Below are positions 34,644 through 56,558 of a DNA stretch of 64,000 nt, piece by piece; position 1 is the stretch's first letter, and every line of letters begins with the position of its first letter. Origin of the DNA: a virus; IMG/VR virus record IMGVR_UViG_3300031972_002122, positions 64,571 to 128,570 of that record; one strand, given 5' to 3'. Both the position numbers and the translations under genes were made by a program. A model generated the notes under the pieces. That model made no database searches and was not told the origin of the DNA. It was given only the letters and a program-made list of their open reading frames with translations.

Positions 34644-34678
34644 TTTGGTTATGTCTTGATGTTTTATATATATTTGCA
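34644..34678 (+). promoter_or_regulatory. Bacteroidota-type sigma70 promoter for tRNA block A
   Basis: TTTG...TATATTTG, matching -33 TTTG / -7 TAnnTTTG. Confidence 0.7.
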
Positions 34679-34706
34679 CATACTTATGAACGAAGAGATA
34701 CGAAAA

Positions 34707-34814
34707 ATGAAAACATTATTATATACATATAGTCTTTTATCGATGACACTGACAAGTGGCTGGTCGTTTTGCGACGGGACGGATTGTCTTTGTAATCTCC
34801 GCTGTGTGGAATAA
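34707..34814 (+). CDS. putative attenuator leader peptide of tRNA block A (MKTLLYTYSLLSMTLTSGWSFCDGTDCLCNLRCVE)
   Basis: Manual translation (in-frame upstream ATG at 34686); lies between promoter and terminator; composition matches downstream tRNAs. Confidence 0.75.
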   Translation: MKTLLYTYSLLSMTLTSGWSFCDGTDCLCNLRCVE

Positions 34815-34855
34815 AGTATTCATGTAATATGTAAGGGATACATTTTAAACATATA

Positions 34856-34891
34856 GAAGCTCGGAGACATAAAAAATCTTCGGGCTTTTTT
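34856..34891 (+). terminator. attenuator terminator upstream of tRNA block A
   Basis: GAAGCTCGGAGA/TCTTCGGGCTTT plus U-run. Confidence 0.8.
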
Positions 34892-34904
34892 AATTTATAG
34901 TAAT

Positions 34905-34973
34905 ATGGAAAATAGAGAAGACATAGAATATTATTATAGCATTACCAATGGGTGTGCTATCGTTGTGGTGTAA
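34905..34973 (+). CDS. Tyr-run uORF (MENREDIEYYYSITNGCAIVVV) reading into tRNA-Tyr
   Basis: TAT TAT TAT at 34929-34937, 12 nt before the tRNA. Confidence 0.7.
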   Translation: MENREDIEYYYSITNGCAIVVV

Positions 34974-35034
34974 ACAAGGCGGTCTGTAAAACCGTCGCCG
35001 TTGGCTAAGATGGGTTCGAATCCCTCCACACCCA
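34950..35034 (+). tRNA. tRNA-Tyr(GTA)
   Basis: GGGTGTG/CACACCC; GCGGT-CTGTAAA-ACCGT; variable arm; TTCGAAT. Confidence 0.85.
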
Positions 35035-35049
35035 CAAAATTTTTAAACT

Positions 35050-35211
35050 ATGAAATGTCCAAAGTGTACGGGAGAACTAAAAAAAGAATTGTTAAAGGAC
35101 AATTCACAACAGGCTCAAGGATCGTGGACTTGTAAGGATTGTAGAACCATTTGGTTCATAATTGAATGTGGGAACCGCGAACGGGGCAAGTATGGAAAGA
35201 AGGTGACGTAG
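35050..35211 (+). CDS. small Zn-ribbon protein (53 aa)
   Basis: Manual translation MKCPKC...WTCKDC. Confidence 0.6.
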   Translation: MKCPKCTGELKKELLKDNSQQAQGSWTCKDCRTIWFIIECGNRERGKYGKKVT

Positions 35212-35278
35212 CTGAGTTTTGGTTTAGCGCAGGTTTGAAGCATCTGAGACGTAGGTTCGATCCCTACCGTCACCACCA
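35202..35278 (+). tRNA. tRNA-Phe(GAA)
   Basis: GGTGACG/CGTCACC-A-CCA; CAGGT-TTGAAGC-ATCTG. Confidence 0.92.
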
Positions 35279-35298
35279 AAATTTCCATACTTATTAGT

Positions 35299-35877
35299 AT
35301 GGAAAGATTAAAACTTAAAAAGTTATTAGACTCTGGTAAAAGTACTAGAGAGATTGCAGAGTTAATTGGAAGGGGGCAGACGACTGTTAGATATTGGATT
35401 AAGAAGCATGGGTTGCGATGTAAGTATCATGAGATTAATCGTCAACAGCGGATAAGTGATATTTGTGAAGCTGTTGCCAAGTCCACCTCATACTCAGAGG
35501 TATGTAGGAAGTTGAAAATTCCTCGTTCTGGAAATTCATATCAGAATATGAGATCGGTGATTGAGAGATTGAGTTTAGATGTCTCCCATTTTACAGGGCA
35601 GCGAAAATATCTAGAGTCTATAAAATTAACTCCATATGATGTATTAATATATGATCGGTTGGATGGTAGGCGGGAACGTACTATAGTGTTGCGTAACGCG
35701 TTAACTGAACTTGGTGTTGATGTGTGTAGATGTAGCCTGTGTGGGTTAGATTCTTGGTTGGGAAAACCACTTGGAATGCATATTGATCATATAGATGGTG
35801 ATAGATTAAATAATATTCGTGATAATTTGAGAATTTTATGTCCAAATTGTCACAATCAAATAACGTATAACAAATGA
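35299..35877 (+). CDS. HNH homing endonuclease with N-terminal HTH
   Basis: CSLCG, HIDHIDGDRLNN..DNLRILCPNCH. Confidence 0.9.
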   Translation: MERLKLKKLLDSGKSTREIAELIGRGQTTVRYWIKKHGLRCKYHEINRQQRISDICEAVAKSTSYSEVCRKLKIPRSGNSYQNMRSVIERLSLDVSHFTGQRKYLESIKLTPYDVLIYDRLDGRRERTIVLRNALTELGVDVCRCSLCGLDSWLGKPLGMHIDHIDGDRLNNIRDNLRILCPNCHNQITYNK

Positions 35878-35939
35878 AATACAAAATAAAAAACAGCAAA
35901 GTCATGTAAGTATTTTAACTTACAAAATAGGACTTTGAT

Positions 35940-36221
35940 ATGAGTAGATCAAGAAAGAAACACGGTGTTGTTAAAGACCGTGGACTCACCCGTAGAGAAT
36001 GGAACAGAAAATTCAGAAGGGTGAACAGACAACGAGTACGTATGGGTAAAGACCCATACCAAATGAAGGAACTGATAAATCCTTACGATGTGTATGATTG
36101 GATATACATATGGGATGAATCGGATATGCAGCGACGGTGGGCTGAAGATGGACGCCATGATTATTATAAAAGGGTATATAAAACCCTTGATAATATGCGT
36201 CGCTGGTACTTTAGAAAGTGA
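35940..36221 (+). CDS. basic conserved phage protein (MSRSRKK family)
   Basis: ORF track. Confidence 0.65.
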   Translation: MSRSRKKHGVVKDRGLTRREWNRKFRRVNRQRVRMGKDPYQMKELINPYDVYDWIYIWDESDMQRRWAEDGRHDYYKRVYKTLDNMRRWYFRK

Positions 36222-36224
36222 CAT

Positions 36225-36295
36225 GGGGATAAGCGTAGGTTGTGTCAGGTGGTCTCCAAAACCGCTCTGTTAGAGTTCGAATCTCTATATCCTTG
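36225..36295 (+). tRNA. tRNA-Trp(CCA), weak D arm
   Basis: GGGGATA/TATCCTT-G; GTGGT-CTCCAAA-ACCGC; TAGAG-TTCGAAT-CTCTA. Confidence 0.8.
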
Positions 36296-36336
36296 CTATT
36301 CGAGTACGTATAAGCACCGCGTTAAGGGCTTGCTAT

Positions 36337-36425
36337 AGTGCTAAAGCGAATGGAAAGCGATCGCCCTGTCACGGCGACATCAGTCGAAAGATTGTATGCG
36401 GGTTCGAGTCCCGTTAGCACTGCCA
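36337..36425 (+). tRNA. tRNA-Asp(GTC) with long variable arm
   Basis: AGTGCTA/TAGCACT-G-CCA; TCGCC-CTGTCAC-GGCGA. Confidence 0.88.
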
Positions 36426-36576
36426 ATAAGAAGCCGTGTGTAAATCCCTGATGATCCAGAATACTCGAGGTCTGGGGAGGGGGTGGAGCATGTAAAGAAA
36501 GCAGTTAACCTAACGTACATGGGGATGACTCGGTTTAAATCCGACGTGAGTAGCGGGACGATATACGCTACAACTC

Positions 36577-36651
36577 GCGGCACACGCATAAGAGGTGGTG
36601 CACCTGCCTTCCAAGCAGGAATTAGATTCGGTTCGATCCCGAAGTGCCGCA
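36577..36651 (+). tRNA. tRNA-Gly(TCC)
   Basis: GCGGCAC/GTGCCGC; CCTGC-CTTCCAA-GCAGG. Confidence 0.9.
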
Positions 36652-36724
36652 CAAATTGATCATCGCTAGGAGATGCATCGGTTGAGAATCAGTTAGGCTG
36701 CTCGATTTGACTGGCGATGAACTT

Positions 36725-36798
36725 GCGACCAACGCATAAGAGGTGGTGCACCACGTTGCCAACGTGGAATAGAGCGAGTTCGATCCTCGCTGGTCGCC
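36725..36798 (+). tRNA. tRNA-Gly(GCC)
   Basis: GCGACCA/TGGTCGC; CCACG-TTGCCAA-CGTGG. Confidence 0.9.
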
Positions 36799-36875
36799 AA
36801 AATCTAGGTCGCAACTAGATGATGTGAGTTATGAGTTCAGGAATCTCACGAAGAATGACAAAATGTCCTGTCTAT

Positions 36876-36947
36876 GTCTCTAAAGCATTTATGGATGATG
36901 TCCACCTTTGTACCGTGGGGAACGGGATTCGATTTCTCGTAGAGACT
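36876..36947 (+). tRNA. tRNA, probably Thr(TGT)
   Basis: GTCTCTA/TAGAGAC; CCACC-TTTGTAC-CGTGG with one mismatch; anticodon register somewhat ambiguous. Confidence 0.65.
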
Positions 36948-36997
36948 CAACAATTCGATTCCAGTGTTTGATTCGTTTTTTGTATACTTATATATGT

Positions 36998-37654
36998 ATG
37001 AAATGGACAGAAACTGAATTGAACGAAGTGATTAATCTTATCAAAAGTGGTAAGACTTATGGTGAAATATCTAACATTGTGGGTAGAAGTAAATCTTCTA
37101 TCAAAAATAAACTAGGGCGTAGCAACGAAAATTATAAAAAGTATGTTAAGTGCGACGTGCTTTTATGTATTCAGTGTGATAATGTTATTAAAAATTTTGG
37201 TATTAAATTTTGCTCTAGATCATGTGCTACTACTTATAACAATTTACTACGAGGAAAAAATCCACGTAAGTGTAAGTGTTGTGGTGGTGAATATTTCGGA
37301 AGAGCTAAAAAATACTGCAGTATTTATTGCTTTCATAAAAGTCAGTGGATGGCAATCGTGAATTTAATTGAATCTGGTGATACTAGCCTTTCTAATCGAC
37401 GTTATAAAAAATATTTAATTTATAAATATGGTGAACAATGTATGGAATGCGGTTGGGATAAAATCAATCCATATAGTGGAAATATACCAATTGAATTAGA
37501 ACATATCGATGGTAATTCTAATAATAACTCTTTGGATAACTTAAAATTATTATGTCCTAATTGTCATTCACTCACACCAACATACAAAGCATTAAATATT
37601 GGTAATGGTCGACATAACCGCATGGTGAGATATAAATCTGGTAAGAGTTTTTAA
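36998..37654 (+). CDS. HNH endonuclease with HTH and Cys-rich repeats
   Basis: FCSRSC, YCSIYC, ELEHIDGNSNNN..NLKLLCPNCHSLT; start moved to MKWTE because the longer ORF overlaps a tRNA. Confidence 0.9.
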   Translation: MKWTETELNEVINLIKSGKTYGEISNIVGRSKSSIKNKLGRSNENYKKYVKCDVLLCIQCDNVIKNFGIKFCSRSCATTYNNLLRGKNPRKCKCCGGEYFGRAKKYCSIYCFHKSQWMAIVNLIESGDTSLSNRRYKKYLIYKYGEQCMECGWDKINPYSGNIPIELEHIDGNSNNNSLDNLKLLCPNCHSLTPTYKALNIGNGRHNRMVRYKSGKSF

Positions 37655-37750
37655 AAAGAGCCGTTTAGACTGTGAGGCGTACCATAGGGATGGTGAATAT
37701 CCTTACATTTATGTGTTGCGTATATGAAAAAGTTTTTTTATATTTGATGT

Positions 37751-38014
37751 ATGAGAAAATTAGAAGGCACAACAGCATGTAAAATGAGAGATGAACTTTG
37801 GTCTAAGCGGAGTAAAACGTTTACACCTACTGTGATTACCAACAGGTTGACTAAGATTGGAATACCAGCGTGGTTACGGTCACAGATCATTCAAATGGTA
37901 CGGTACAACGAAATGGATCGATGTACAGATGCAATTGAGCAGGCGATGTACCAGTCTGTATGTAATTTGATCGTCAAGGAATTGATGGATGCTGAGAAAA
38001 AGGTATTTGATTAA
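37751..38014 (+). CDS. hypothetical protein
   Basis: ORF after a sigma70-like promoter. Confidence 0.6.
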   Translation: MRKLEGTTACKMRDELWSKRSKTFTPTVITNRLTKIGIPAWLRSQIIQMVRYNEMDRCTDAIEQAMYQSVCNLIVKELMDAEKKVFD

Positions 38015-38022
38015 AACAATAT

Positions 38023-38092
38023 AGCACAAGTGCGCGGGACACAGGACGGACTCATATTCTGTCTTCGCTCGGATCGTTACCGAGTTGTGCTA
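38023..38092 (+). tRNA. tRNA(CAT), Met or Ile2, with non-canonical D and T loops
   Basis: AGCACAA/TTGTGCT; ACGGA-CTCATAT-TCTGT; CTCGG-ATCGTTA-CCGAG. Confidence 0.7.
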
Positions 38093-38107
38093 CTGATTAG
38101 AATAAAA

Positions 38108-38206
38108 ATGAAAGAAAGAACTGAAATATCGAGTAGTAGTTCCAGATACTGGAAGGTGAACCTAGCAGGGTCTAGGACTGGATTGCTAATCCATGGGGTC
38201 GGGTAA
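38108..38206 (+). CDS. Ser-run uORF (MKERTEISSSSSRYW...) reading into tRNA-Ser
   Basis: TCG AGT AGT AGT TCC at 38129-38143, 7 nt before the tRNA. Confidence 0.72.
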   Translation: MKERTEISSSSSRYWKVNLAGSRTGLLIHGVG

Positions 38207-38238
38207 AACTGACTGGGCTTCGATTGCTCCTCCTTCCG
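38151..38238 (+). tRNA. tRNA-Ser(GCT)
   Basis: GGAAGG/CCTTCC-G; TGGA-TTGCTAA-TCCA; long variable arm. Confidence 0.82.
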
Positions 38239-38245
38239 CTTAATT

Positions 38246-38335
38246 GGTAAGTTAAGCAGTCCCATGGAGGGGCGACTAGTCTTGAAAACTAGGTAGCAGG
38301 TCATGCTGCTCGGGGGTCGGTTCCTCAACTTACCG
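38246..38335 (+). tRNA. tRNA-Ser(TGA)
   Basis: GGTAAGT/ACTTACC-G; CTAGT-CTTGAAA-ACTAG; long variable arm. Confidence 0.85.
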
Positions 38336-38343
38336 CAATTTAT

Positions 38344-38417
38344 GGTCAAGTGGCTGAGTGGATGTAGGCATCTGATTGCAAGTCAGGTTTACGGGGGTTC
38401 GAATCCCTCCTTGACCT
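38344..38417 (+). tRNA. tRNA-Cys(GCA)
   Basis: GGTCAAG/CTTGACC-T; TCTGA-TTGCAAG-TCAGG. Confidence 0.92.
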
Positions 38418-38430
38418 CAACGAAAAAATT

Positions 38431-38484
38431 ATGAAAGTAATAAATACATACAATCGATTACGACTGCTACTCTTACCTGAGTAG
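38431..38484 (+). CDS. Leu-run leader peptide (MKVINTYNRLRLLLLPE)
   Basis: TTA CGA CTG CTA CTC TTA; followed by a hairpin and four tRNA-Leu genes. Confidence 0.78.
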   Translation: MKVINTYNRLRLLLLPE

Positions 38485-38521
38485 CCTCACCACTTCAAAA
38501 TTCAGTGGGGGGCAAATCTAT

Positions 38522-38595
38522 GCCCCCATGGTGGAACTGGAATACACGTTTGATTAAGGATCAAAAGCTTGCGAGTTCGAATCTCGCTGGGGGTA
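38522..38595 (+). tRNA. tRNA-Leu(AAG), short variable loop
   Basis: GCCCCCA/TGGGGGT-A; TTTGA-TTAAGGA-TCAAA. Confidence 0.85.
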
Positions 38596-38605
38596 CAAAA
38601 AGAAA

Positions 38606-38666
38606 CCGATCGGGTACACGGTATACCCGATTGGGTACACGGTATACCCGATTGGGTATATCCGAT
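38606..38666. repeat. 21-bp tandem repeat (~2.9 copies), each copy a hairpin
   Basis: CCGATYGGGTACACGGTATAC x2 plus a partial third copy. Confidence 0.85.
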
Positions 38667-38749
38667 GACTCTGTGATGAAATGGAAGACATGCCCGGCTC
38701 AAAATCGGGTGCCTAGCTAGGCGTGTGGGTTCGAATCCCACTAGGGTCA
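38667..38749 (+). tRNA. tRNA-Leu(CAA)
   Basis: GACTCTG/TAGGGTC; CCCGG-CTCAAAA-TCGGG; variable arm. Confidence 0.9.
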
Positions 38750-38754
38750 CAAAT

Positions 38755-38832
38755 ACCTCCGTGGGCAAATGGTAAAGTCCGCAGTCTTAGACACTGTAAT
38801 CGTAGTTGCTGGTTCGACTCCAGTCGGAGGTA
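38755..38832 (+). tRNA. tRNA-Leu(TAG)
   Basis: ACCTCCG/CGGAGGT; GCAGT-CTTAGAC-ACTGT. Confidence 0.9.
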
Positions 38833-38840
38833 CAATTAAT

Positions 38841-38914
38841 AGTCCCGTAGCCCAACCGGAAGAGGCATCAGGTTTAAACTCTGTTCAGTGTGGGTTCGAC
38901 TCCCATCGGGACTA
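38841..38914 (+). tRNA. tRNA-Leu(TAA), short variable loop
   Basis: AGTCCCG/CGGGACT; CAGG-TTTAAAC-TCTG. Confidence 0.85.
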
Positions 38915-38937
38915 CTATTTTTTATATACTTATTAGT

Positions 38938-42516: not shown

Positions 42517-42534
42517 ATATTTTTTAGCAAAATA

Positions 42535-42568
42535 GTTGTTTTTATCCAAAATATTTATATATATTTGT
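42535..42568 (+). promoter_or_regulatory. Bacteroidota-type promoter for tRNA block B
   Basis: TTTATATATATTTG, same motif as at ~34665 and ~48367. Confidence 0.65.
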
Positions 42569-42617: not shown

Positions 42618-42752
42618 ATGAAAGATTTGATGAACATAGAACGTGTGGACGAACCAGCCGAGGAGACATGGCGCGGTCGTCTAAATGGACTAGGACACCA
42701 GACTTTCAATCTGGACGATGCGGGTTCGATCCCCGTCCGCGCTACCAAGTAG
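42618..42752 (+). CDS. Glu-rich uORF (MKDLMNIERVDEPAEET...) reading through tRNA-Glu
   Basis: GAA, GAA, GAG GAG within the last 10 codons before the tRNA. Confidence 0.68.
   Translation: MKDLMNIERVDEPAEETWRGRLNGLGHQTFNLDDAGSIPVRATK
42670..42747 (+). tRNA. tRNA-Glu(TTC)
   Basis: GGCGCGG/CCGCGCT-A-CCA; CCAGA-CTTTCAA-TCTGG. Confidence 0.93.
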
Positions 42753-42944: not shown

Positions 42945-43016
42945 ATGAACACATACACAATCATACAACATCAACCGCAGCCCGTAGGGGCTATTCATCA
43001 ACATAGATTGGTGTAG
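42945..43016 (+). CDS. Gln/His/Pro leader peptide (MNTYTIIQHQPQPVGAIHQHRLV)
   Basis: 4 Gln, 3 His, 2 Pro; followed by a hairpin and tRNA-Pro, -His, -Gln. Confidence 0.8.
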   Translation: MNTYTIIQHQPQPVGAIHQHRLV

Positions 43017-43052
43017 GGAATTGATATGTCGTTCCCTTACATCGTAAGATAA

Positions 43053-43127
43053 CGGGGAGCGATCCATTGGTGTGGTTGCGCGGTTTGGAGCCGTGGTTAT
43101 TTGAAGGTTCGAATCCTTTCTCCCCGA
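43053..43127 (+). tRNA. tRNA-Pro(TGG)
   Basis: CGGGGAG/CTCCCCG-A; CGCGG-TTTGGAG-CCGTG. Confidence 0.88.
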
Positions 43128-43141
43128 CTAGTAATACACAT

Positions 43142-43235: not shown

Positions 43236-43253
43236 TTAGTAGTTTTTTTATAA

Positions 43254-43326: not shown

Positions 43327-43351
43327 CAAGAATAAAATAATAATAGCATAT

Positions 43352-43469: not shown

Positions 43470-43496
43470 CATTTTTTAATCTTAAAAAGGATAGTT

Positions 43497-43667: not shown

Positions 43668-43672
43668 CTATC

Positions 43673-43702
43673 AAGGAGATGAAGAAATTCATCTCCTTTT
43701 TT
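43673..43702 (+). terminator. intrinsic terminator closing tRNA block B
   Basis: AAGGAGATGAA-GAAA-TTCATCTCCTT plus U-run. Confidence 0.88.
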
Positions 43703-43762
43703 GTTTATACCAAAAGTTTTTTATATTATTGCATTATTAATTAACTTAAAATACTTAGCAAT

Positions 43763-48397: not shown

Positions 48398-48478
48398 ATG
48401 TTAAGAAATATCAACATATCAGCCATTAAAGTGAATCGCATTAAAGCGAAAGGGTCGAAGTATGTCGTGTTGATATAA
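48398..48478 (+). CDS. putative attenuator leader peptide of tRNA block C (MLRNINISAIKVNRIKAKGSKYVVLI)
   Basis: Manual translation; I/K/N/R/A/V-rich; its 3' end is complementary to the terminator 5' arm. Confidence 0.8.
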   Translation: MLRNINISAIKVNRIKAKGSKYVVLI

Positions 48479-48504: not shown

Positions 48505-48539
48505 AAAGCCAGTACGACAAGATCGCACTGGCTTTTTTT
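48505..48539 (+). terminator. attenuator terminator directly before tRNA block C
   Basis: AAAGCCAGTACGA/TCGCACTGGCTTT plus U-run. Confidence 0.85.
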
Positions 48540-48542
48540 ATT

Positions 48543-48621
48543 GGCGAGTACCAGCCCATCCTGATAAGATGGAGAACTGTAATTGGTTGTTGAAAATGTG
48601 GGTTCAAATCCCATCTCGCCA
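48543..48621 (+). tRNA. atypical tRNA-Ile(GAT) lacking a normal D arm
   Basis: GGCGAG/CTCGCC-A; CCATC-CTGATAA-GATGG; GTGGG-TTCAAAT-CCCAT. Confidence 0.7.
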
Positions 48622-48637
48622 ACTTAACTGTTAAAAT

Positions 48638-48712
48638 ACGCATGTAGGCAAGTAGGTGAAGCCGTGAAGCTTATATCTTCATGACACGTTGGTTCGAACC
48701 CAACCATGCGTA
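48638..48712 (+). tRNA. tRNA-Ile(TAT)
   Basis: ACGCATG/CATGCGT-A; TGAAG-CTTATAT-CTTCA. Confidence 0.88.
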
Positions 48713-48830
48713 CAATAATTACAAATAAAAATATTTGTATTTTTTTTTCAAAAAAGTTTGGAAATACGTGAAAGTTGTTTATCTTAGTGTTGTAATCGGA
48801 GGGGATTATTATTAACCTAAACCTTATATC

Positions 48831-49352
48831 ATGACAACCACCGCAGTATTAAGTCGACCAATTGGCGAGCACAGAATTGAAGAATTGAAAAAAACAATTG
48901 AACACACTCGAGAATTGATGCGAGATCGATCTAGACGAATCGGGGAAGGTCTGACGGATATGGATGATTGCTTCATTTCAGAACGATCCAACCAGCAGAC
49001 TATAACTGGGTGTGAAATGAAGATTAATATTCTTGAAAACAAAGGACTTAGTCAATTTGAAGTACTCGTTGATATTGATACTGATGAGATAGTATCAGAT
49101 GGTGATCGGAGATATGGTGAGTATGGTGGATACTGGGTCATGAACGATGAGTATTATAAGCGAACTGGAAAACGTTACGTCGGAGATGCCAAACGAGAAT
49201 CGACTTTCACCAAGAAGGGTGTACGAAAGGAATATCGAGAATTTCCAGCATGGGTGTATTTTTCGGCAGGAGGTGGTAGTGGTTTGATGGGTGCGTATAC
49301 TGGATCATATCGTGTATTCCGTTCAGATAAAAATTACTACACCGAAAAATAA
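48831..49352 (+). CDS. hypothetical protein
   Basis: ORF after a sigma70-like promoter. Confidence 0.7.
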   Translation: MTTTAVLSRPIGEHRIEELKKTIEHTRELMRDRSRRIGEGLTDMDDCFISERSNQQTITGCEMKINILENKGLSQFEVLVDIDTDEIVSDGDRRYGEYGGYWVMNDEYYKRTGKRYVGDAKRESTFTKKGVRKEYREFPAWVYFSAGGGSGLMGAYTGSYRVFRSDKNYYTEK

Positions 49353-49427
49353 TTGTGTGGATATTTGATTTATATGAAAAAGTTTTTTATATTAGCGTAA
49401 CAATACTTAACCAAAAATACTAATACA

Positions 49428-49739
49428 ATGGATATCAATTTTGAAGAAATTATACTTAGACAGCAACTTTCGAGTCGTGGTGGGGGGATTGAGGTAGATT
49501 TAACAAGTCTTGGATTTCCAGAAGCTAAAATGACAGTGTACCAAAACTATTTGGGTGGTGGAATGCTTGGGAGAGTTTGCAACGATTGTACGATTAGTGA
49601 CTGGCGAGACGACGCGAAACTATCTAAGATTGCTGCAGAGCTTCGACAGTTCATGCATAAAGTTACAAATCCATCAGATGATGCGTGGGAATCTGTGAGT
49701 TATGAGCAGAATCAAAAAATGCCAGTAAGTGCATACTAG
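49428..49739 (+). CDS. hypothetical protein
   Basis: ORF after a sigma70-like promoter. Confidence 0.7.
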   Translation: MDINFEEIILRQQLSSRGGGIEVDLTSLGFPEAKMTVYQNYLGGGMLGRVCNDCTISDWRDDAKLSKIAAELRQFMHKVTNPSDDAWESVSYEQNQKMPVSAY

Positions 49740-49744
49740 TAATC

Positions 49745-50315
49745 CAAAGGGATTACATTAAATTTGACAGAAGAGCATAAACCGCCTCGGGGTGACTAGT
49801 TTGGATTGGCGTCTTAATTAGGTGAACTTAGAGGAAACGATATGTCAAAGCGTGTGGATACTATGAGCTGTAACCTTATCAGGTTAGACGTAAGAACTTT
49901 GGGTAAGACGTACTATGAGGGTGAAGTTATCAGGTTAGATGAAGCGCGTGAGTTGGTTGCCTGTTTGGAAGGGCAGCGAAGTATTGAGCGAGTTCGACAT
50001 ATCTGGGGATTCTGTATGTGGTAGGTCATTGCGATCCGCCAAGATCATATGACTGAGTTATTACTGAGTCCTCATTACCGCTCACGTATAATGATAAAAA
50101 CCTCGTGCGGTGAAATTCCCTCACTTGAATGAATCATATAGGCGTGATACCTATTTTGGAAAAACGTGAGGCGAGGTTTTAAAATAATAGTGCTTTACGT
50201 GGAGACCATTGCACTCGAAATATGTGGGTCTATCCTATCCCTTAAGCTGAGGGCATAGCAGAGAAGCTAGATGTTTAAAAACTCTGTGCTGAGCAAGCAC
50301 GCTAAAAGGCTCATA
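49745..50315 (+). ncRNA. candidate large structured ncRNA
   Basis: ~570 nt without a credible ORF, GC-richer than flanks, many long-range helices. Confidence 0.55.
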
Positions 50316-50337
50316 TTTTTAAAACTAAATATTTAGT

Positions 50338-50565
50338 ATGGATATGATAAATATGATGAATGCGTTTTTGAAGTTGGGTGAAATATCATCTCCAGACGCT
50401 TCATTAGAAGATAAGGTGAAGTATAAGGAGCGCATTGTTTTCGCTACTATGCGAGCATCTATACCTGATTGGAAAGTTCCAGCACATTACAATGAATTAG
50501 ACACTCAGGGGAAATACGATTTGTTGGTTAAACTTGAAAAAATAACAACTGAGGATACTCAGTGA
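50338..50565 (+). CDS. hypothetical protein
   Basis: ORF track. Confidence 0.6.
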   Translation: MDMINMMNAFLKLGEISSPDASLEDKVKYKERIVFATMRASIPDWKVPAHYNELDTQGKYDLLVKLEKITTEDTQ

Positions 50566-50578
50566 AAATAGTTGAATA

Positions 50579-51046
50579 ATGGCAAACCATGCACGGATTG
50601 TAAAAAATAAATTACCGATAACTGTAGCTGGTGTTGATATGATTGTTGATCGAATTATATCTGACCGATTTGGAGATGTTTTATCGGTGACTAAGAATTC
50701 TGAAACTGAGTGGTTGATTAGTGTGTATGGGGATAACACATATGAAGGTATTTTATTTTGGATCAATGAGGTAGGTGAATTAGAATTTAGACACGGTCAC
50801 GGATTTATACATTTTTGGTATTTAGAGGGAGTATTTAGAGAGAATTTGGCAGTGTTTTTTGGAGGAGATGTGAATGACGACGGGGTAGGAGAAGATGAAA
50901 TTCCCAGACCAGAAAAATATGAAAATTTTGATGCTTACTTTAGTAAATTACCAAAAAAATATTTGAAATCTATATACAAAGATTATTTACAACTTTACTC
51001 TAAGGAAATTTATGAAAAGTTAGAAGTTCCAGAATGGTTAAGGTGA
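50579..51046 (+). CDS. hypothetical protein
   Basis: ORF track. Confidence 0.65.
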   Translation: MANHARIVKNKLPITVAGVDMIVDRIISDRFGDVLSVTKNSETEWLISVYGDNTYEGILFWINEVGELEFRHGHGFIHFWYLEGVFRENLAVFFGGDVNDDGVGEDEIPRPEKYENFDAYFSKLPKKYLKSIYKDYLQLYSKEIYEKLEVPEWLR

Positions 51047-51202
51047 CGTAGCTCAGATATCGTTTGAAACGGAAGCTGCCAATTACTAACGAGTAATGTA
51101 GTCCTGAGTAGCACACGCGGAGTGTACATTAAACGTGTGAGATTTGGTTAGAGCATTATTCTGATAGAATAAGGGTCGGTGGTTCGAATCCACCCGTCGC
51201 AA
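51042..51202 (+). tRNA. tRNA-Ile(GAT) with ~85-nt structured insertion in the D loop
   Basis: GGTGACG-TA-GCTC-AG[insert]TTGGTTA-GAGC-A-TTATT-CTGATAG-AATAA...GGTGG-TTCGAAT-CCACC-CGTCGC. Confidence 0.75.
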
Positions 51203-51208
51203 CGAATT

Positions 51209-51281
51209 GGGGGTGTAGCTCAACTGGATGAGCACTTGCTTTGCAAGTAGGGAGATGTGGGTTCGAGTCCCATCACTTCCA
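51209..51281 (+). tRNA. tRNA-Ala(TGC)
   Basis: GGGGGTG/CACTTCC-A (G3:U70); CTTGC-TTTGCAA-GTAGG. Confidence 0.92.
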
Positions 51282-51398
51282 CTAATAATTGAAATATCGT
51301 TCGGTGAACGTCCGAAACACCGAGTAGTAACTGTTCAGAGCGGTCAAACACTTGGGAATGACGTCCCTGACGATAATTCTTTTTAAAATGTAAATAAA

Positions 51399-52577
51399 AT
51401 GAAACAAGTAATAAGTAGTCAGAAGAAGCCAATTAAGATGTGGCTAGATAATCTGGAGCATGGAGCGATCCAGCAAGCTAAGAACTTGGCGAACTTGCCA
51501 TTCTTATTTAAGCATGTTGCGATTATGCCAGACTCACATCAGGGTTATGGTATGCCGATCGGTGGTGTACTAGCTACTGAAGGTGTGGTTATACCGAATG
51601 CTGTCGGTGTTGACATTGGATGTGGGATGTGTAGTGTTAAGACTAGCATCAAAACGGAAGAGATTGATAAAATTGACTTCTCAAAGTTAATGAACTTGAT
51701 CCGTAAGAAGGTTCCAGTGGGATTTAACCATCACCAGCGAAATCAGAATTCCAAGTGGATGCCTGATGGGATGGATGATGTACCAAAGACTGGTAACATT
51801 CGGAAGGAGTTGAGTAGTGCGCTGAAGCAAGTAGGCACACTCGGTGGTGGTAATCACTTTATAGAGATACAAGCTGGTGATGATGGCTATGTGTGGATAA
51901 TGATTCACTCAGGGTCACGTAACTTAGGTTATAAGACAGCTAGACACCATAACACGTTGGCTAAAGAGATCAATAAGAAATATTGGTCTGAGGTTCCACC
52001 ATCGTGGGATTTAGCATTCTTACTGATCGACTCGCAGGAGGGACAGGATTATATAAGTGAGCTTAATTATGCGACGAAGTTTGCGCTAGCAAACCGTGCA
52101 CATATGATGGAAGCTGTTAAAGAATGTTTAATTGATGTAGCGGGATGGGGTGTTACGTTTGATCCGATGATCAACAAGCCACATAACTTTGCGGAGATGG
52201 AACATCACTTTGGTAAGAATGTTATGGTACACCGTAAGGGTGCTTGTCGGGCTAGGAATGGTGAAGTGGGTATGATACCCGGCTCTCAAGGAACGCACTC
52301 GTATATCGTGAAGGGTAAGGGTGAGGAAAACTCATTCCAGTCTTGCTCACACGGTGCTGGTAGAGTGATGGGACGTAAAGCCGCTCAGAGAAGTTTAGAT
52401 TTTGACACTGAGGTTAAGCGGTTGAATGACATGGGAGTGTACCACACATTAGAAACGGTAAAGCAATTAGATGAAGCTGCAGGGGCATATAAAGATATTG
52501 ACCTCGTGATGGAAAACCAATCTGATCTAGTAGAAATATTAGTGAAGCTGAAGCCATTAGCAGTAGTAAAAGCATAA
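51399..52577 (+). CDS. rtcB: RNA ligase RtcB
   Basis: MPDSHQGYGMPIGG, VGVDIGCGM, GTLGGGNHFIE, HSGSR, HN, HRKGA, SCSHGAGR, DEAAGAYKDI. Confidence 0.96.
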   Translation: MKQVISSQKKPIKMWLDNLEHGAIQQAKNLANLPFLFKHVAIMPDSHQGYGMPIGGVLATEGVVIPNAVGVDIGCGMCSVKTSIKTEEIDKIDFSKLMNLIRKKVPVGFNHHQRNQNSKWMPDGMDDVPKTGNIRKELSSALKQVGTLGGGNHFIEIQAGDDGYVWIMIHSGSRNLGYKTARHHNTLAKEINKKYWSEVPPSWDLAFLLIDSQEGQDYISELNYATKFALANRAHMMEAVKECLIDVAGWGVTFDPMINKPHNFAEMEHHFGKNVMVHRKGACRARNGEVGMIPGSQGTHSYIVKGKGEENSFQSCSHGAGRVMGRKAAQRSLDFDTEVKRLNDMGVYHTLETVKQLDEAAGAYKDIDLVMENQSDLVEILVKLKPLAVVKA

Positions 52578-52579
52578 AG

Positions 52580-52674
52580 ATATCCTGACGTCAGGTTCGA
52601 TTCCTGAATTCCACCACGGTACCATTGGGTGGATGTTCTTTGCGCAAAGAATTCCTTGGTGGCAGTTGGGACAT
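52580..52674 (+). ncRNA. permuted tRNA-like RNA (YrlA-like arrangement)
   Basis: outer stem ATATCCTGAC/GTTGGGACAT enclosing a T arm TCAGG-TTCGATT-CCTGA, then a TCCACC/GGTGGA hairpin. Confidence 0.5.
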
Positions 52675-52693
52675 TTTATAACATATTCAATAT

Positions 52694-52948
52694 ATGAAAT
52701 TTATTGTAACCTCAGTAATATATTTGGATGATGTACTCGTCGATAGTCGAGTGTCATTCTGTGAGAATGAATCATTGATGAAAGCAGTTGACGCTGAATG
52801 TCGTAGACGTATGGATTTCTCCGAGGAGAATAATGTACTGACGCCATCACTATCATTTCATATTAGAGAGAATTGTATCATAGTACAAGATACAAGAGCT
52901 CAAGCGGTGCACGTTGTGGCACCATTTATAAATTGCCTCGGGAGCTGA
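52694..52948 (+). CDS. hypothetical protein
   Basis: ORF track. Confidence 0.55.
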   Translation: MKFIVTSVIYLDDVLVDSRVSFCENESLMKAVDAECRRRMDFSEENNVLTPSLSFHIRENCIIVQDTRAQAVHVVAPFINCLGS

Positions 52949-53007
52949 CAAGGCGTAGCGACTGGCTGTTAACCAGAGGGCGGTGGGTTCGATTCCCACC
53001 CGAGGCG
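52935..53007 (+). tRNA. tRNA-Asn(GTT)
   Basis: GCCTCGG/CCGAGGC-G; CTGG-CTGTTAA-CCAG. Confidence 0.9.
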
Positions 53008-53111
53008 CAAAACATACAGGTAGATTGTGAGGTATAAGCAATCTTTTAATCTTGATACTTGCTTTAAATAGCACAGAACGCTTAGTCTAGTATCATCCTA
53101 TGTGTTAATTT

Positions 53112-53185
53112 AGCCTCATGGCGCAATTGGATAGCGCACTTGACTACGAATCAAGAGGTTGAAGGTTCGAATCCTTCTGGGGCTA
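53112..53185 (+). tRNA. tRNA-Arg(ACG)
   Basis: AGCCTCA/TGGGGCT; CTTGA-CTACGAA-TCAAG. Confidence 0.93.
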
Positions 53186-53200
53186 CAAAATATAAATACA

Positions 53201-53716
53201 ATGGATCGTGTTTTTAAAACAATGGATGGTGAAGTAGTTGACGTGATACCATACACGTTCGATTTCATCCGAGACAACAAAGGGACTAAAATCTTTGTTG
53301 GAGCAGACTCACAAGTTCGTAGGTATACTATCAAGTACGCCGTATGTATTGTGTATCGATATGGTACGCTCTTCTCATACACCGAGGGTGGTGTGAAGCG
53401 TGAGATCGGGAAGGGATGTCACGTACTTAAATCGGTCTGGGAGGTACCCAAGCGTGGTGCTGGTACTGGTGAAGCGTTGTTGATTAAGAGGTTGATGGAT
53501 GAAATAACGACATCTATAGTAACTGCAGAGACATTGCGAGAAAACGCGATACACGTTGAACAAATTGATTTTGACTTGAATGATGATGATCAGTGCGCGT
53601 CACATAAAATGGTGAGTACTGCGAGAGGTTGGGCAACTGGTCTTGGATATAAAGTGAGTATAAAACCAGATATGCAGTTCGCTACTAAGGCAGCTAACCA
53701 TATTGTAAACCATTAA
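53201..53716 (+). CDS. RNase H-like YkuK (DUF458) family protein
   Basis: KIFVGADSQ, RLMDEITTS, IDFDLN, IKPD..ATKAAN. Confidence 0.8.
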   Translation: MDRVFKTMDGEVVDVIPYTFDFIRDNKGTKIFVGADSQVRRYTIKYAVCIVYRYGTLFSYTEGGVKREIGKGCHVLKSVWEVPKRGAGTGEALLIKRLMDEITTSIVTAETLRENAIHVEQIDFDLNDDDQCASHKMVSTARGWATGLGYKVSIKPDMQFATKAANHIVNH

Positions 53717-53720
53717 TAAT

Positions 53721-53750
53721 ATGAAGTATAAACGAAAATATAAACAGTAA
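53721..53750 (+). CDS. Lys-rich leader peptide (MKYKRKYKQ)
   Basis: AAG plus 3x AAA in 9 codons; followed by a hairpin and three tRNA-Lys genes. Confidence 0.72.
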   Translation: MKYKRKYKQ

Positions 53751-53783
53751 TTAACTTCACCAGCGAGTCTGGGGGAGTTAAAT

Positions 53784-53856
53784 ACCCCCAATGCTCGTAT
53801 GGTAGAGCACCTGACTTTTAATCAGGGTATAGTGAGTTCGAATCTCACTGGGGGTA
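53784..53856 (+). tRNA. tRNA-Lys(TTT)
   Basis: ACCCCCA/TGGGGGT; CCTGA-CTTTTAA-TCAGG. Confidence 0.92.
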
Positions 53857-53866
53857 CATATGATAT

Positions 53867-53938
53867 CCGCTCGAAGCATTGCTGGCGATGTTCTTGGCTC
53901 TTAACCTTGAGAATTGGGTTCGATTCCCGACGGGCGGA
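53867..53938 (+). tRNA. tRNA-Lys(CTT)
   Basis: CCGCTCG/CGGGCGG; CTCTTAA loop; weak anticodon stem. Confidence 0.78.
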
Positions 53939-53947
53939 CAATTTTAA

Positions 53948-54038
53948 ACCCCCATAGCTGAATTGGAAGCAGTACTGTAAGGGAACAAGCAACGCACTTT
54001 TAATGCGTGGGATGTGAGTTCGAGTCTCACTGGGGGTA
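53948..54038 (+). tRNA. tRNA-Lys(TTT) with enlarged D loop
   Basis: ACCCCCA/TGGGGGT; ACGCA-CTTTTAA-TGCGT; ~17 extra nt in the D loop. Confidence 0.8.
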
Positions 54039-54093
54039 CTAAAATATATTACGTAATTTGTATAATGTTGAGAATTTTTTATATTTGCTTTAT

Positions 54094-54345
54094 ATGAATA
54101 AGAAAGATAAAGAAACGTATAAAAAGATTGTGGAAGGTGAATGGAAAGACATGCCTGAATTCCACCAAGACGATTTAACGTCTAAGCGAAAGATTGTTGT
54201 TCATTTTAGGAACGATGATGATGTAAAAAAGTTTGAGGAGTTGATGGATCAAAAGATAACGCCAAAGCAAAAATCGCTATGGTATCCATACATGCCTCCT
54301 AGACGGTATGCTCATAAACGATATATAGACGAAGATGAATCCTAG
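54094..54345 (+). CDS. small protein of the type found next to GREB1/TAGT-like glycosyltransferases
   Basis: WKDMPEF..IVVHFRN..F..LMDQKITPKQKSLWYP. Confidence 0.65.
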   Translation: MNKKDKETYKKIVEGEWKDMPEFHQDDLTSKRKIVVHFRNDDDVKKFEELMDQKITPKQKSLWYPYMPPRRYAHKRYIDEDES

Positions 54346-55201
54346 ATATCCTATATACATACCATCTAAGGGTCGATACGAGACGCGTAAGACCGTTAAA
54401 GCACTCGATGCTATATCGGTGCCATATCGGATCGTTGTAGAGCCACAGGAGTACGATAAATACGCTGCAGTCATTGACGAGCATAATATATTAGTACTCC
54501 CAGAGGATAACGTGAAGTTAATCGGTGCTCGGAATTGGATAAAGCAACATTCAATATCGGAGGGGTATGAGCGACATTGGCAACTTGATGATAATATAGA
54601 ACAGTTCAATAGGCTTAATAGAAATTACCAAGTCAAGGTATCGTCTGGGACTATATTTAGGTGTGCTGAAGATTTCACGGATAGGTATGACAACATAGCT
54701 TATTCAGGATTTCAATACGATCACTTCGCAAAGGCGAAGACTAAGATGTTACCATTTATATTGAATACACGGGTGTATTCGTGTACGTTAGTCAATAACC
54801 TTGCACCATACGCTTGGCGATCGATTTATAATGATGATACTGATGTGTGTCTTCAAGCTTTGAAAGATGGGTGGTGTACTGTGTTGTTCAACGCATTCCT
54901 CCAGTGTAAAGCTACGACAATGACAGTTAAGGGTGGAAACACTGAAGAGTTATATTTGATCGAGGATGGTCGTAAGAAGATGGCACAGGCGTTAGTAGAC
55001 TTACATCCAGACGTTGCTAAGGTAGCGTGGAGATTTAATCGATGGCAACATGTAGTGGACTATAGCTCATTCAAGTTGAATAATCGATTGCAGAAGAAAG
55101 ATGGTATAACGATCCCAGAAGGGATCAATAATTATGGTATGAAATTAGTCACCGTAGATTCTGATGAATACACACGGTGGGAAGCAAATAAGCTCCTTTA
55201 G
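54335..55201 (+). CDS. GREB1-like / TET-associated glycosyltransferase (putative DNA base modification)
   Basis: YPIYIPSKGR, GARNWI, WQLDDNI, YNDDTD.CLQAL..GWCT, KGGNT. Confidence 0.82.
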   Translation: MNPRYPIYIPSKGRYETRKTVKALDAISVPYRIVVEPQEYDKYAAVIDEHNILVLPEDNVKLIGARNWIKQHSISEGYERHWQLDDNIEQFNRLNRNYQVKVSSGTIFRCAEDFTDRYDNIAYSGFQYDHFAKAKTKMLPFILNTRVYSCTLVNNLAPYAWRSIYNDDTDVCLQALKDGWCTVLFNAFLQCKATTMTVKGGNTEELYLIEDGRKKMAQALVDLHPDVAKVAWRFNRWQHVVDYSSFKLNNRLQKKDGITIPEGINNYGMKLVTVDSDEYTRWEANKLL

Positions 55202-55266
55202 CTCAGTTGGTTTAGAGCACTTGTTTTACATGCATGGGGTCGTAGGTTCGAATCCTACAGGGAGCA
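55192..55266 (+). tRNA. tRNA-Val(TAC)
   Basis: GCTCCTT/AGGGAGC-A; TTTACAT loop. Confidence 0.88.
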
Positions 55267-55278
55267 CAAATTAAATAT

Positions 55279-55728
55279 ATGACAAATTCAGAGATAATAA
55301 GTTTAGGTATTAACATTGGCGTTTTTGACGAAACAGTAACAGATTTTGAATTACAATATATACTATTCACTCATTATATGGAGAGGATGGCTGTTATGGG
55401 CTTATTATCTAGTTCTGGTGGGGAATATGAAATATCAGATACTGGTAAGGCGGTGATTGAATTTCTAGTTAGTAATGAGTATACACTAAATGCTGATGAT
55501 TTGAAAATGTTTATGATGAACGACGTTGAACAATATGTACAATTAATACCTGTTATTGACGCGTTCGTGGAGTCTATTATACTCCTACACACTGACGGTG
55601 AAGATGTCTTAATTAATCGTCTTATAGACTTAGGTGCTAGGCGTGATCCTGATGAGATAGATGCATTGATTGAGATGCATAGCGAGATGGTGGAGCAGGT
55701 AAAGACCAAGTATAATATTACTGAATAA
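55279..55728 (+). CDS. hypothetical protein
   Basis: ORF track. Confidence 0.6.
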   Translation: MTNSEIISLGINIGVFDETVTDFELQYILFTHYMERMAVMGLLSSSGGEYEISDTGKAVIEFLVSNEYTLNADDLKMFMMNDVEQYVQLIPVIDAFVESIILLHTDGEDVLINRLIDLGARRDPDEIDALIEMHSEMVEQVKTKYNITE

Positions 55729-55731
55729 CAT

Positions 55732-55804
55732 GCTCCCTTGGCTCAACGGATAGAGTATCCGACTTCGAATCGGAGGATTATAGGTTCGAATCCTATAGGG
55801 AGTA
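55732..55804 (+). tRNA. tRNA-Arg(TCG)
   Basis: GCTCCCT/AGGGAGT; TCCGA-CTTCGAA-TCGGA. Confidence 0.93.
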
Positions 55805-55941
55805 CAAATAGGTTCTACCACATCCAGACGTGGACGGTAGATTATAAAAATAATTCCATAAAAGTTTGTTAATACCAATATTTTTTATATATTAGTGTTC
55901 TAAAAATTTATTGCATTTTTTATTTCATTTAAAACAACAAT

Positions 55942-56421
55942 ATGAAAGGTTCAATTTTTACGATTATGTTCATGCTATTGATTAGCACATTCATCACCGC
56001 ACAGACTGAAGCTCCAGTGGATGATGATCGTGGGTGGTATCAGGGTGATATACTGGCAGGTGCCAATACGACACTGGACAACACATCACTTTTAAATGTT
56101 CAGTTCTCACCAGTAGTTGGTTACGCCGTAACGGATTATGATATGGTAACGACATCGATCATTTACGCTGACAGTGATGGCTCGGCAAGTTACAGTGTTC
56201 AAGTTGGTTATCAACGAGCTGTATGGCTTGACGGCTTATATGTAGGTGCTGGATTGGGATTAGTTAATTTTACAGGGGAATCCAATACAATTATTAATGC
56301 TAATGTCGGATATTTTGCAAAATTAGGAAACTACTGGTATGTATCGCCAAGGCTTGGATTTGAGACCTCGGATGGGGATTCTAATTTGATGACTCAGCTA
56401 ACCTTTGGATTTGTTTTGTAA
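55942..56421 (+). CDS. outer-membrane beta-barrel protein (8-strand type) with signal peptide
   Basis: signal peptide, alternating beta strands (FSPVVGY, LYVGAGLG, YWYVSPRLGF), C-terminal LTFGFVL. Confidence 0.75.
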   Translation: MKGSIFTIMFMLLISTFITAQTEAPVDDDRGWYQGDILAGANTTLDNTSLLNVQFSPVVGYAVTDYDMVTTSIIYADSDGSASYSVQVGYQRAVWLDGLYVGAGLGLVNFTGESNTIINANVGYFAKLGNYWYVSPRLGFETSDGDSNLMTQLTFGFVL

Positions 56422-56446
56422 TAGTAAATAATAGTTAAACATATAC

Positions 56447-56479
56447 GAGGGAAGTTGATACATGTCAACTTCCCTTTTT
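56447..56479 (+). terminator. intrinsic terminator
   Basis: GAGGGAAGTTGATA/TGTCAACTTCCCTT plus U-run. Confidence 0.85.
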
Positions 56480-56486
56480 AATATAA

Positions 56487-56558
56487 GCTCCTATGGTGTA
56501 ATGGATAGCACAAGAGTTTTCTAAACTTTTAGTTGGGGTTCGAATCCCTGTAGGAGTA
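56487..56558 (+). tRNA. tRNA-Arg(TCT)
   Basis: GCTCCTA/TAGGAGT; AGAGT-TTTCTAA-ACTTT. Confidence 0.9.

Follow-up and report, generated by a model that had tools for sequence, protein, structure and literature searches.

It has been debated for decades why phages carry tRNA genes and what controls them. We address this question for a stretch of 64,000 nucleotides (nt; hereafter, the window) from an uncultured marine phage (positions 64,571 to 128,570 of the IMG/VR record IMGVR_UViG_3300031972_002122), in which a large array of tRNA genes is accompanied by short upstream open reading frames (uORFs) located directly before individual tRNA genes or blocks of such genes. A viral contig of 128.6 kb, estimated to be 73% complete and covered 88x in a seawater metagenome, contains the window as its right half. 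What do these leader ORFs do? They are enriched in codons for the amino acids of the tRNAs encoded downstream; two of them are followed by intrinsic terminators, and five others hold strands complementary to the 5' end of the next tRNA. We consider it somewhat more probable than the contrary that these elements constitute a two-tier, ribosome-read sensor that turns on the phage tRNA genes when the codons read by these tRNAs are decoded slowly. A full-text literature search that covered main texts returned no paper on the control of tRNA genes, phage or cellular, by leader peptides or uORFs.

Short leader ORFs and the tRNA genes they precede

A preliminary description of this DNA listed eight ATG-initiated uORFs before tRNA genes, all of which are indeed present, and claimed that they are enriched in cognate codons, an enrichment that turned out to be far above chance. 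Candidate uORFs were defined as first-ATG ORFs of 6 to 50 codons that lie outside the tRNA genes and start no more than 200 nt upstream of one, and a match was scored when at least three residues of the amino acid of a following tRNA occurred within 5 codons. Cognate runs were detected in 9 of the 30 candidates, compared to 1.59 +/- 1.12 with shuffled tRNA labels; none of the 2000 shuffles reached 9 (p<=0.0005 for label permutation within the window). Two of these nine matches are frames running through tRNA genes and are to be discounted. The feature is real and non-random, with little room for doubt.

Hereafter, coordinates are those of the window unless indicated otherwise, and the leaders, tRNA genes, promoter-like motifs, hairpins and terminators of the array are on the plus strand. 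Among the six local uORFs, uORF-Y (34905..34973), which encodes ..EYYYS.., contains three consecutive Tyr codons (TAT TAT TAT, 34929-34937) and reads into the tRNA-Tyr gene, and uORF-S (38108..38206; ..ISSSSSR.., with TCG AGT AGT AGT TCC at 38129-38143) similarly reads into tRNA-Ser(GCT). Five Leu codons (TTA, CTG, CTA, CTC and TTA) are found in uORF-L (38431..38484; ..RLRLLLLPE), and 4 Glu codons are among the 16 codons located before tRNA-Glu in uORF-E (42618..42752; ..IERVDEPAEET), which then continues through the tRNA-Glu gene (42670-42747) and is also the leader of the second tRNA block. The 22 codons of uORF-PHQ (42945..43016; ..QHQPQP..HQH..) include 4 Gln, 3 His and 2 Pro, and uORF-K (53721..53750) encodes MKYKRKYKQ.

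By enrichment, the cognate amino acid ranks first among the twenty in five of these six uORFs and second in the Tyr uORF; in the uORF at 42945, the three most enriched residues, Q, H and P, are exactly those of the next three tRNAs. As a block leader, the ORF at 42618 is weaker than the two block leaders described below, with 6 of the 16 codons in the set {E,P,H,Q,M} (p=0.02). Five amino acids (T, S, P, A and V) have codon boxes that the phage anticodons read only in part; of the 22 leader codons for these, 18 are covered by phage anticodons, compared to 13.3 expected (p=0.027).

With default settings, ARAGORN predicts 26 tRNA genes, all on the plus strand, from 34950 to 56559, to which Rfam and relaxed ARAGORN add Gly(TCC) at 36577, Met-like at 38023, Ser(GCT) at 38151, Ser(TGA) at 38251 and Ile(GAU) at 48542, as well as a weak Ile(GAT) call at 51136. 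Accordingly, the two Ser genes named in the preliminary description, which default ARAGORN misses, are recovered in the relaxed mode (38151-38239, GCT; 38251-38336, TGA), one of them being weak in Rfam. The gene that was described as a third Lys (53948-54039) has an ambiguous identity: ARAGORN assigns it to Leu(taa), and its anticodon loop was read by eye as CUUUUAA. The tRNA at 48542-48622 has a GAU (Ile) anticodon; its variable region spans 22 nt, and its D arm is reduced.

These genes fall into three blocks. Block A (34950..38915) comprises 15 genes, for Tyr, Phe, Trp, Asp, Gly(TCC), Gly(GCC), Thr, Met-like, Ser(GCT), Ser(TGA), Cys and four Leu. Block B includes Glu (42670-42747), Pro/His/Gln (43053-43327) and a Met-like tRNA (43581-43668), after which it is closed by a strong terminator (43673..43707). 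Block C (48542..56559) consists of 12 tRNA genes, Ile(GAT)-like, Ile(TAT), Ile(GAT)?, Ala, Asn, Arg(ACG), Lys(TTT), Lys(CTT), Lys-like, Val, Arg(TCG) and Arg(TCT), with protein-coding genes between them.

Many tRNAs of the array are non-canonical. Long extra arms are found in the tRNAs for Asp (89 nt, 36337-36425) and His (93 nt, 43143-43235) as well as in the Met-like tRNA (88 nt, 43581-43668), and the Lys(UUU)-like gene at 53948-54039 is interrupted by approximately 18 inserted nt. A 120-nt tRNA-like element (43350-43470) has a good acceptor and T arm and a 55-nt 5' insertion, and a 21-nt tandem repeat is present in 2.5 copies (38606-38658) between tRNA-Leu(AAG) and tRNA-Leu(CAA).

Block leaders, terminators and candidate antiterminator strands

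The leaders of blocks A and C, L1 and L3, are written almost wholly in codons for the amino acids of the respective blocks. In L1 (34707..34814; 35 codons, with further in-frame ATGs at 34686 and 34659), 29 of the 34 residues come from the block A set {Y,F,W,D,G,T,M,S,C,L}, all ten members of which are represented. Residues 3-29 are in the set without exception, a stretch of 27, compared to a maximum of 10 in 620 other short ORFs. The set fraction of L1 is reached by none of the 741 short ORFs on both strands of the genome and by 2 of the 30600 windows of phage proteins. In L3 (48398..48478; 26 codons), 19 of the 25 residues belong to the block C set {I,A,N,R,K,V}, a fraction reached by one of the 741 short ORFs, L3 itself, and by 7 of the 31599 protein windows. 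The two leaders are specific to their blocks: the block C set accounts for only 4 of the 34 L1 residues, and the block A set for 6 of the 25 residues of L3 (Fisher p=1.4e-6).

Each block is headed by a promoter-like motif. P1 (34644..34676; TTTG-N21-TATATTTG) and P3 (48347..48379; TTTG-N21-TATATTTA) are nearly identical, and P2 (approximately 42527-42567, with TATATTTG at 42560..42567) heads block B. We take these TTTG-N-TATATTT(G/A) motifs to represent the Bacteroidota-type -33/-7 promoter consensus and infer that P1-P3 act as host-type promoters and that the host belongs to the Bacteroidota. The shorter pattern TAnnTTTG is not enriched before the phage genes (5 of 129 compared to 3.1% of random windows), and therefore the host assignment stays inferential. 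In a pattern scan, L1 starts 31 nt and L3 19 nt after the TTTG-N21-TATATTT(G/A) motif; both begin with an ATG preceded by an A-rich stretch and lack a Shine-Dalgarno (SD) sequence. The genes of this phage show no SD enrichment in general, an SD-like k-mer being missing in 65 of the 130 long plus-strand ORFs compared to 43% of random positions, so that the lack of SD does not disqualify the uORFs.

As previously described, both leaders are followed by terminators: T1 (34857..34891) has an 11-base-pair stem, a 9-nt loop and a U-run, and T3 occupies 48506..48539. The first tRNA gene is located 59 nt past T1 and 3 nt past T3, with no promoter motif in between. Among all upstream stretches of the transcript, the one that pairs best with the 5' arm of either terminator lies beneath the final codons of the respective leader: in L1, the strand at 34795..34806, under codons 30-33, pairs with the 5' arm of T1 (-9.6 kcal/mol), and in L3, the strand at 48463..48472 pairs with the 5' arm of T3 at 48509-48519 (-11.4 kcal/mol). 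The cognate runs (codons 3-29 of L1 and 3-18 of L3) lie upstream of these strands, which are overlain by the non-cognate C-terminal residues of the two leaders. When the transcript was folded before the 3' arm of the terminator is made, with 30 nt around the ribosomal aminoacyl (A) site masked, the antiterminator pairing persisted for A sites at 34710-34782 in L1 and 48401-48446 in L3, which is the zone of the cognate runs, and was gone at the last codons and the stop. Thus, an arrangement that fits the logic of an attenuator occurs twice, in unrelated sequences.

These features suggest the following first level of control. Transcription would start at a host-type promoter and proceed through L1 or L3. 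A ribosome that reaches the stop codon would cover the antiterminator strand, so that the terminator forms and the tRNA block remains silent; a ribosome stalled earlier, at a hungry cognate codon, would leave the antiterminator in place, allowing RNA polymerase to enter the tRNA genes. This would be multivalent leader-peptide attenuation of the ilv and thr kind, directed at tRNA genes. We find it probable that L1 and L3 function as such terminator-bearing attenuators; the signal would be a shortage of charged or intact tRNA, provided that the leaders are translated and ribosomes stall in them in the predicted manner. An Rfam search (cmscan at E<=0.1) of the region 30000-60000 detected no His, Leu, Thr or Trp leader and no T-box; the matches were tRNA-type, together with weak opposite-strand matches to Plastid-ycf2 on tRNA genes.

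Local leaders and the 5' ends of tRNAs

The preliminary description set the leaders beside the ribosome-mediated attenuation of amino-acid operons. The anatomy of L1 and L3, with a promoter-like motif, a short ORF, a candidate antiterminator strand and an intrinsic terminator, fits this picture, whereas no stem followed by a U-run was found between any of the six local uORFs, including the Glu leader, and the respective tRNA; the local uORFs therefore cannot be attenuators of the trp type. Hence the proposal of a two-tier circuit stands insofar as codon matching was found both at the level of blocks and locally, but its local tier needs a mechanism that does not involve a terminator.

A candidate mechanism is suggested by the complementarity between the leaders and the tRNAs. 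An alternative RNA pairing had been claimed for each unit, and five of the six local uORFs indeed hold a strand that pairs with the tRNA 5' end, the Ser unit being the one without. We compared the leader strand with the first 12 nt of the next tRNA and computed z-scores against shuffled leaders, which were -3.5 for Tyr, -3.7 for Leu, -4.5 for Pro, -3.6 for Lys, -1.8 for Glu and -0.3 for Ser; the Tyr, Leu, Pro and Lys complementarities are each at or below 1% of the shuffles. The mean z is -2.9 in the six uORF units compared to -0.4 in the 16 tRNAs that have no uORF, for which the values lie between +0.7 and -1.6 (Mann-Whitney p=0.0009). In a separate complementarity test, the leader in uORF-E and the 5' half of tRNA-Glu gave -32.3 kcal/mol (z=-5.2 over 40 nt), and the Lys unit gave z=-4.1.

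The units show two arrangements. In the Leu, Pro/His/Gln and Lys units, the anti-acceptor strand is the 3' arm of a hairpin, the 5' arm of which starts at or over the stop codon. The hairpin adjoining the uORF-L stop (38485..38514) has the 3' arm GGGGGGCA, which can alternatively pair with the acceptor strand at the 5' end of tRNA-Leu(AAG), a gene starting at 38522; in the hairpin over the uORF-PHQ stop (43010..43043), the strand 43027-43038 can pair with the 5' end of tRNA-Pro; and the 3' arm CUGGGGG of the hairpin adjoining the uORF-K stop (53751..53781) has an alternative partner in the 5' strand of the acceptor stem of tRNA-Lys(TTT), which starts at 53784. In the Tyr and Glu units, the strand lies under or just after the cognate codons (34935-34947 for Tyr, pairing with the tRNA-Tyr 5' end), and the ORF continues into the tRNA.

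In mask folds with the A site on cognate codons, the acceptor stem was intact at 34926-34932 in the Tyr unit and 38117-38135 in the Ser unit, up to 38470 in the Leu unit and up to 53736 in the Lys unit, and mostly so at 42948-42990 in the Pro unit. In the Glu unit, a tRNA fold was read by eye at 42639-42657; the acceptor-stem score there is 0 at all positions, which is attributed to a coordinate offset in the script. The acceptor stem was lost once the ribosome was at the uORF end or inside the tRNA.

Taken at face value, these folds would be compatible with a second level of control, in which the six uORFs carry codon runs for the next one to four tRNAs beside a strand able to sequester the 5' acceptor end. 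A ribosome that stalls on the cognate codons would mask the anti-acceptor strand of the Tyr and Glu units, whereas in the Leu, Pro/His/Gln and Lys units it would leave this strand locked in the hairpin, which a terminating ribosome would open. Either way, the tRNA could then fold and mature. Such pairings point to the control of pre-tRNA folding or processing by the local units, yet that they work as anti-acceptor switches seems to us possible rather than likely. We are at least as doubtful of the more specific scheme of a homeostat for each tRNA, in which the position of the ribosome on the cognate uORF would decide whether the acceptor strand is captured, so that a tRNA or a small group of tRNAs would mature only when its own codons are read slowly, possibly serving as an alarm for host anticodon nucleases.

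Alternative explanations, genomic setting and known systems

A number of observations weigh against the two-tier sensor as a whole. Some of these concern the definition of its parts: the tRNA blocks were delimited after the data had been seen; if L1 is taken from the upstream ATG at 34686, its set fraction falls to 0.73, which is matched by 9 of the 741 short ORFs; and further copies of TATATTTG at 37739 and 54080 suggest internal promoters. A local cognate leader is absent from 8 of the 14 tRNA clusters, and the Ser unit, as noted, has no anti-acceptor strand. Others concern the folding. The energies of the antiterminator duplexes are ordinary, dinucleotide shuffles being as good in 710 of 2000 cases for L1 and 101 of 2000 for L3, or in 127 and 33 of 2000, respectively, when the right position is required. 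Minimum free energy folding is unreliable for tRNAs, and the mask-fold result for the local units accordingly has the status of a hypothesis. In the equilibrium fold of the full transcript, T1 and T3 have a formation probability of 0.88-0.99 for every ribosome position, and therefore any switch must be kinetic; kinetic switching is the accepted view for trp as well.

For comparison, 24 tRNA arrays of the kind that adjoins the three-gene module described below were fetched, of which 23 remained after duplicate removal in later scans, and no layout comparable to that in the window was found in T5, Vibrio phage Va1 or 23 other arrays. The enrichment over permuted pairings that was expected of other arrays was not significant in the test of ATG uORFs (13 of 319 compared to 8.5 expected, p=0.08, in 24 arrays); a frame-agnostic test gave a slight excess, 26 of 189 compared to 16.6 expected (p=0.006), from scattered L, S, R and K runs without ORF structure. 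The small ORFs between the T5 tRNAs and the Vibrio phage Va1 leaders are not cognate-rich. In the locus that shares the most genes with the window (L037), the only suggestive case is a 29-codon ORF (12735-12824) with 4 His (HVKHVEKYLKH), located 30 nt before tRNA-His. Separately, a 42-amino-acid ORF with 5 Cys, T5.070 (L164 12628-12756, minus strand), lies just upstream of tRNA-Cys; given its CxxC..CxxC zinc-ribbon look, the Cys content may be a coincidence.

Searches for relatives in which conservation or covariation could be assessed were likewise negative. The DNA search of GenBank phages matched single tRNAs only and nothing longer; a scan of IMG/VR with a single protein found no close relative; profile scans with the neighbouring gene 44119-45030 yielded 80 viral and 80 metagenome loci, with identity of at most 58% and no close relative among them; and a promoter-pattern search produced two matches, both unrelated and AT-rich. 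The sequencing runs listed for this stretch include no RNA run; three DNA runs, all from one seawater study, contain the same phage, with zero variants inside the leaders; the single diverged contig in these runs is 260 nt long and covers the RtcB gene only.

The alternatives to the two-tier sensor fare as follows. The mechanism could be the same, with general translation stress or amino-acid starvation as the signal, the composition of the blocks merely tuning broad sensors, in the manner of the mycobacterial whiB7 uORF. This would agree with the sampling of ten amino acids by L1 and six by L3, many with only one or two codons, and the whiB7 uORF is reported to respond when genes for amino-acid biosynthesis, tRNAs or synthetases are knocked down (PMC10274678). 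We nevertheless regard this explanation as unlikely: L1 and L3 share almost no amino acids and divide exactly by tRNA block, and the local uORF runs for one to three amino acids fit the very next tRNAs, neither of which properties a general sensor needs.

A comparably low probability attaches to the explanation that the uORFs are genes for micro-proteins, or serve to couple ribosomes to the transcript against RNases or Rho, with the terminators ending small genes and the codon match being otherwise caused or coincidental. To the eye, L1 does resemble a signal peptide followed by a Cys-rich peptide with 4 Cys, a further point against its role as a leader, and the thermodynamic dominance of T1 and T3 at each ribosome position would agree with this explanation. 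Moreover, other small ORFs of the array are ordinary, such as the zinc-ribbon-like 53-amino-acid ORF at 35050-35211 and the ORF at 43497 with an SD-like AAGGA. However, this explanation does not account for the promoterless tRNA genes right behind T1 and T3, the block-wise split of the amino acids or the restriction of anti-acceptor strands to the leaders that bear uORFs.

Chance, in which fitting ORFs would have been picked from the many short ones in AT-rich DNA, is a much less credible explanation. K, Y, I and N codons are frequent in DNA of 39% G+C; taken by themselves, the Lys and Tyr runs carry little weight (p=2e-4 and 0.027, with post hoc choice); and a frame-agnostic test of the window gives only p=0.025. 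Nevertheless, label permutation, which preserves composition, retains its significance, L1 and L3 have empirical ranks of 0 and 1 among the 741 short ORFs, and, among 1007 ORF-by-span rows from the window and the 23 arrays, the ORFs at 48398 and 42945 hold the top four places and L1, taken from the ATG at 34659, the seventh. An RNA-only sensor, in which leader triplets pair with tRNA anticodons like a T-box specifier, without translation, would use the same codons and alternative helices but is the least probable of all, given the lack of a T-box or any other leader family in Rfam at the above cutoff, the confinement of the cognate codons to one frame within ATG-to-stop ORFs, and the mixing of synonymous codons (TTA, CTG, CTA and CTC for Leu; TCG, AGT and TCC for Ser), which fits decoding at the level of amino acids rather than by one anticodon.

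The long ORFs around the tRNA array are nearly all on the plus strand. An RtcB RNA ligase gene (51399-52577) is among the protein-coding genes of block C and is mentioned as context only, and HNH endonuclease genes are scattered among the tRNA genes of block A. Each HNH gene within the array begins just after a common palindromic motif, ..ATACTTATTAGTATG.. (35282-35305, 36975-37000 and 38918-38940). A three-gene module at 43763-46178 encodes a 118-amino-acid protein, a 303-amino-acid protein with thousands of homologues and a 382-amino-acid adenylosuccinate synthetase/PurZ-like protein (phrog_1211); the same module, at identities of at most 58%, adjoins the tRNA arrays of many unrelated large phages, including Vibrio phage Va1, Rhizobium phages and cluster-C-like mycobacteriophages. 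Farther away, the region 3400-24700 is occupied by a large island whose genes encode glycosyltransferases, aminotransferases and sugar epimerases/dehydratases, and the region 61400-64000 contains a tandem family of at least 8 small genes for glycine-rich (G-X)n repeat proteins of about 60-80 amino acids that start with MRV(D/Y)S.., a composition that explains the extreme G-over-C skew (0.69) of this region.

If the two-tier sensor operates as proposed, the phage would gauge decoding capacity codon by codon and supply tRNAs on demand, extending attenuation from amino-acid supply, the control known so far for amino-acid genes, to the tRNA pool. It would also provide a direct link to host defences that target tRNAs, and the units of promoter, leader and switch, being small and self-contained, could be ported as sensors of tRNA availability. 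It is plausible that the purpose of the sensor would be anti-defence. A tRNA of T5 is reported to counter the PARIS defence (PMC11464382), and phage tRNAs have been considered as counter-defence through anticodon-loop changes (PMC10264068). The array described here resembles such counter-defence arrays in its size and its homing endonucleases and additionally encodes an RtcB RNA ligase, a setting that offers a plausible reason for tRNAs on demand; leader-peptide control of tRNA genes is not mentioned in the opening lines of the abstracts of the PARIS and anticodon-loop accounts.

Among regulatory RNAs, T-box riboswitches sense the state of a specific tRNA via a terminator and an antiterminator, independently of translation; their Stem I and T-box sequence are conserved, and their targets are synthetase and amino-acid genes. 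The sensing of a specific tRNA state and the choice between terminator and antiterminator would be common to these elements and the system proposed here, which differs in having no Rfam match. In erm and cat translation attenuation, stalling of the ribosome within a short leader ORF leads to the post-transcriptional remodelling of a hairpin located downstream, and the drug-induced stall frees a ribosome-binding site. The six local uORFs would follow the same logic, except that a codon-induced stall would free the 5' acceptor strand of a tRNA. A bacterial counterpart is the mycobacterial whiB7 uORF, where stalling is believed to cause antitermination and the coding sequence sets what is sensed (PMC10274678). 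The logic of a uORF attenuator is shared, and whiB7 is activated by knock-down of tRNAs and synthetases; however, whiB7 differs in being a bacterial system with an alanine bias that controls a transcription factor gene and shows no match to a downstream tRNA set.

The closest parallel is provided by the enterobacterial attenuators, namely trpL, hisL, leuL, pheL and the pheST leader, and especially by the multivalent ones of ilvGMEDA (Leu/Val/Ile) and thr (Thr/Ile). The pheL leader attenuator is treated in a further source (PMC3082878). Unlike these attenuators, the leaders described here belong to a phage, precede tRNA genes rather than genes for enzymes or a synthetase, and show neither homology to Rfam leaders nor an SD sequence; furthermore, L1 and L3 sample ten and six amino acids, mostly through 1-7 scattered codons rather than long runs. 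Like the enterobacterial attenuators, L1/T1 and L3/T3 combine a short ORF after a promoter-like motif, putative regulatory codons, a candidate antiterminator strand that would be covered at the stop and an intrinsic terminator, and, as in ilvGMEDA and thr, a single leader would sense several amino acids.

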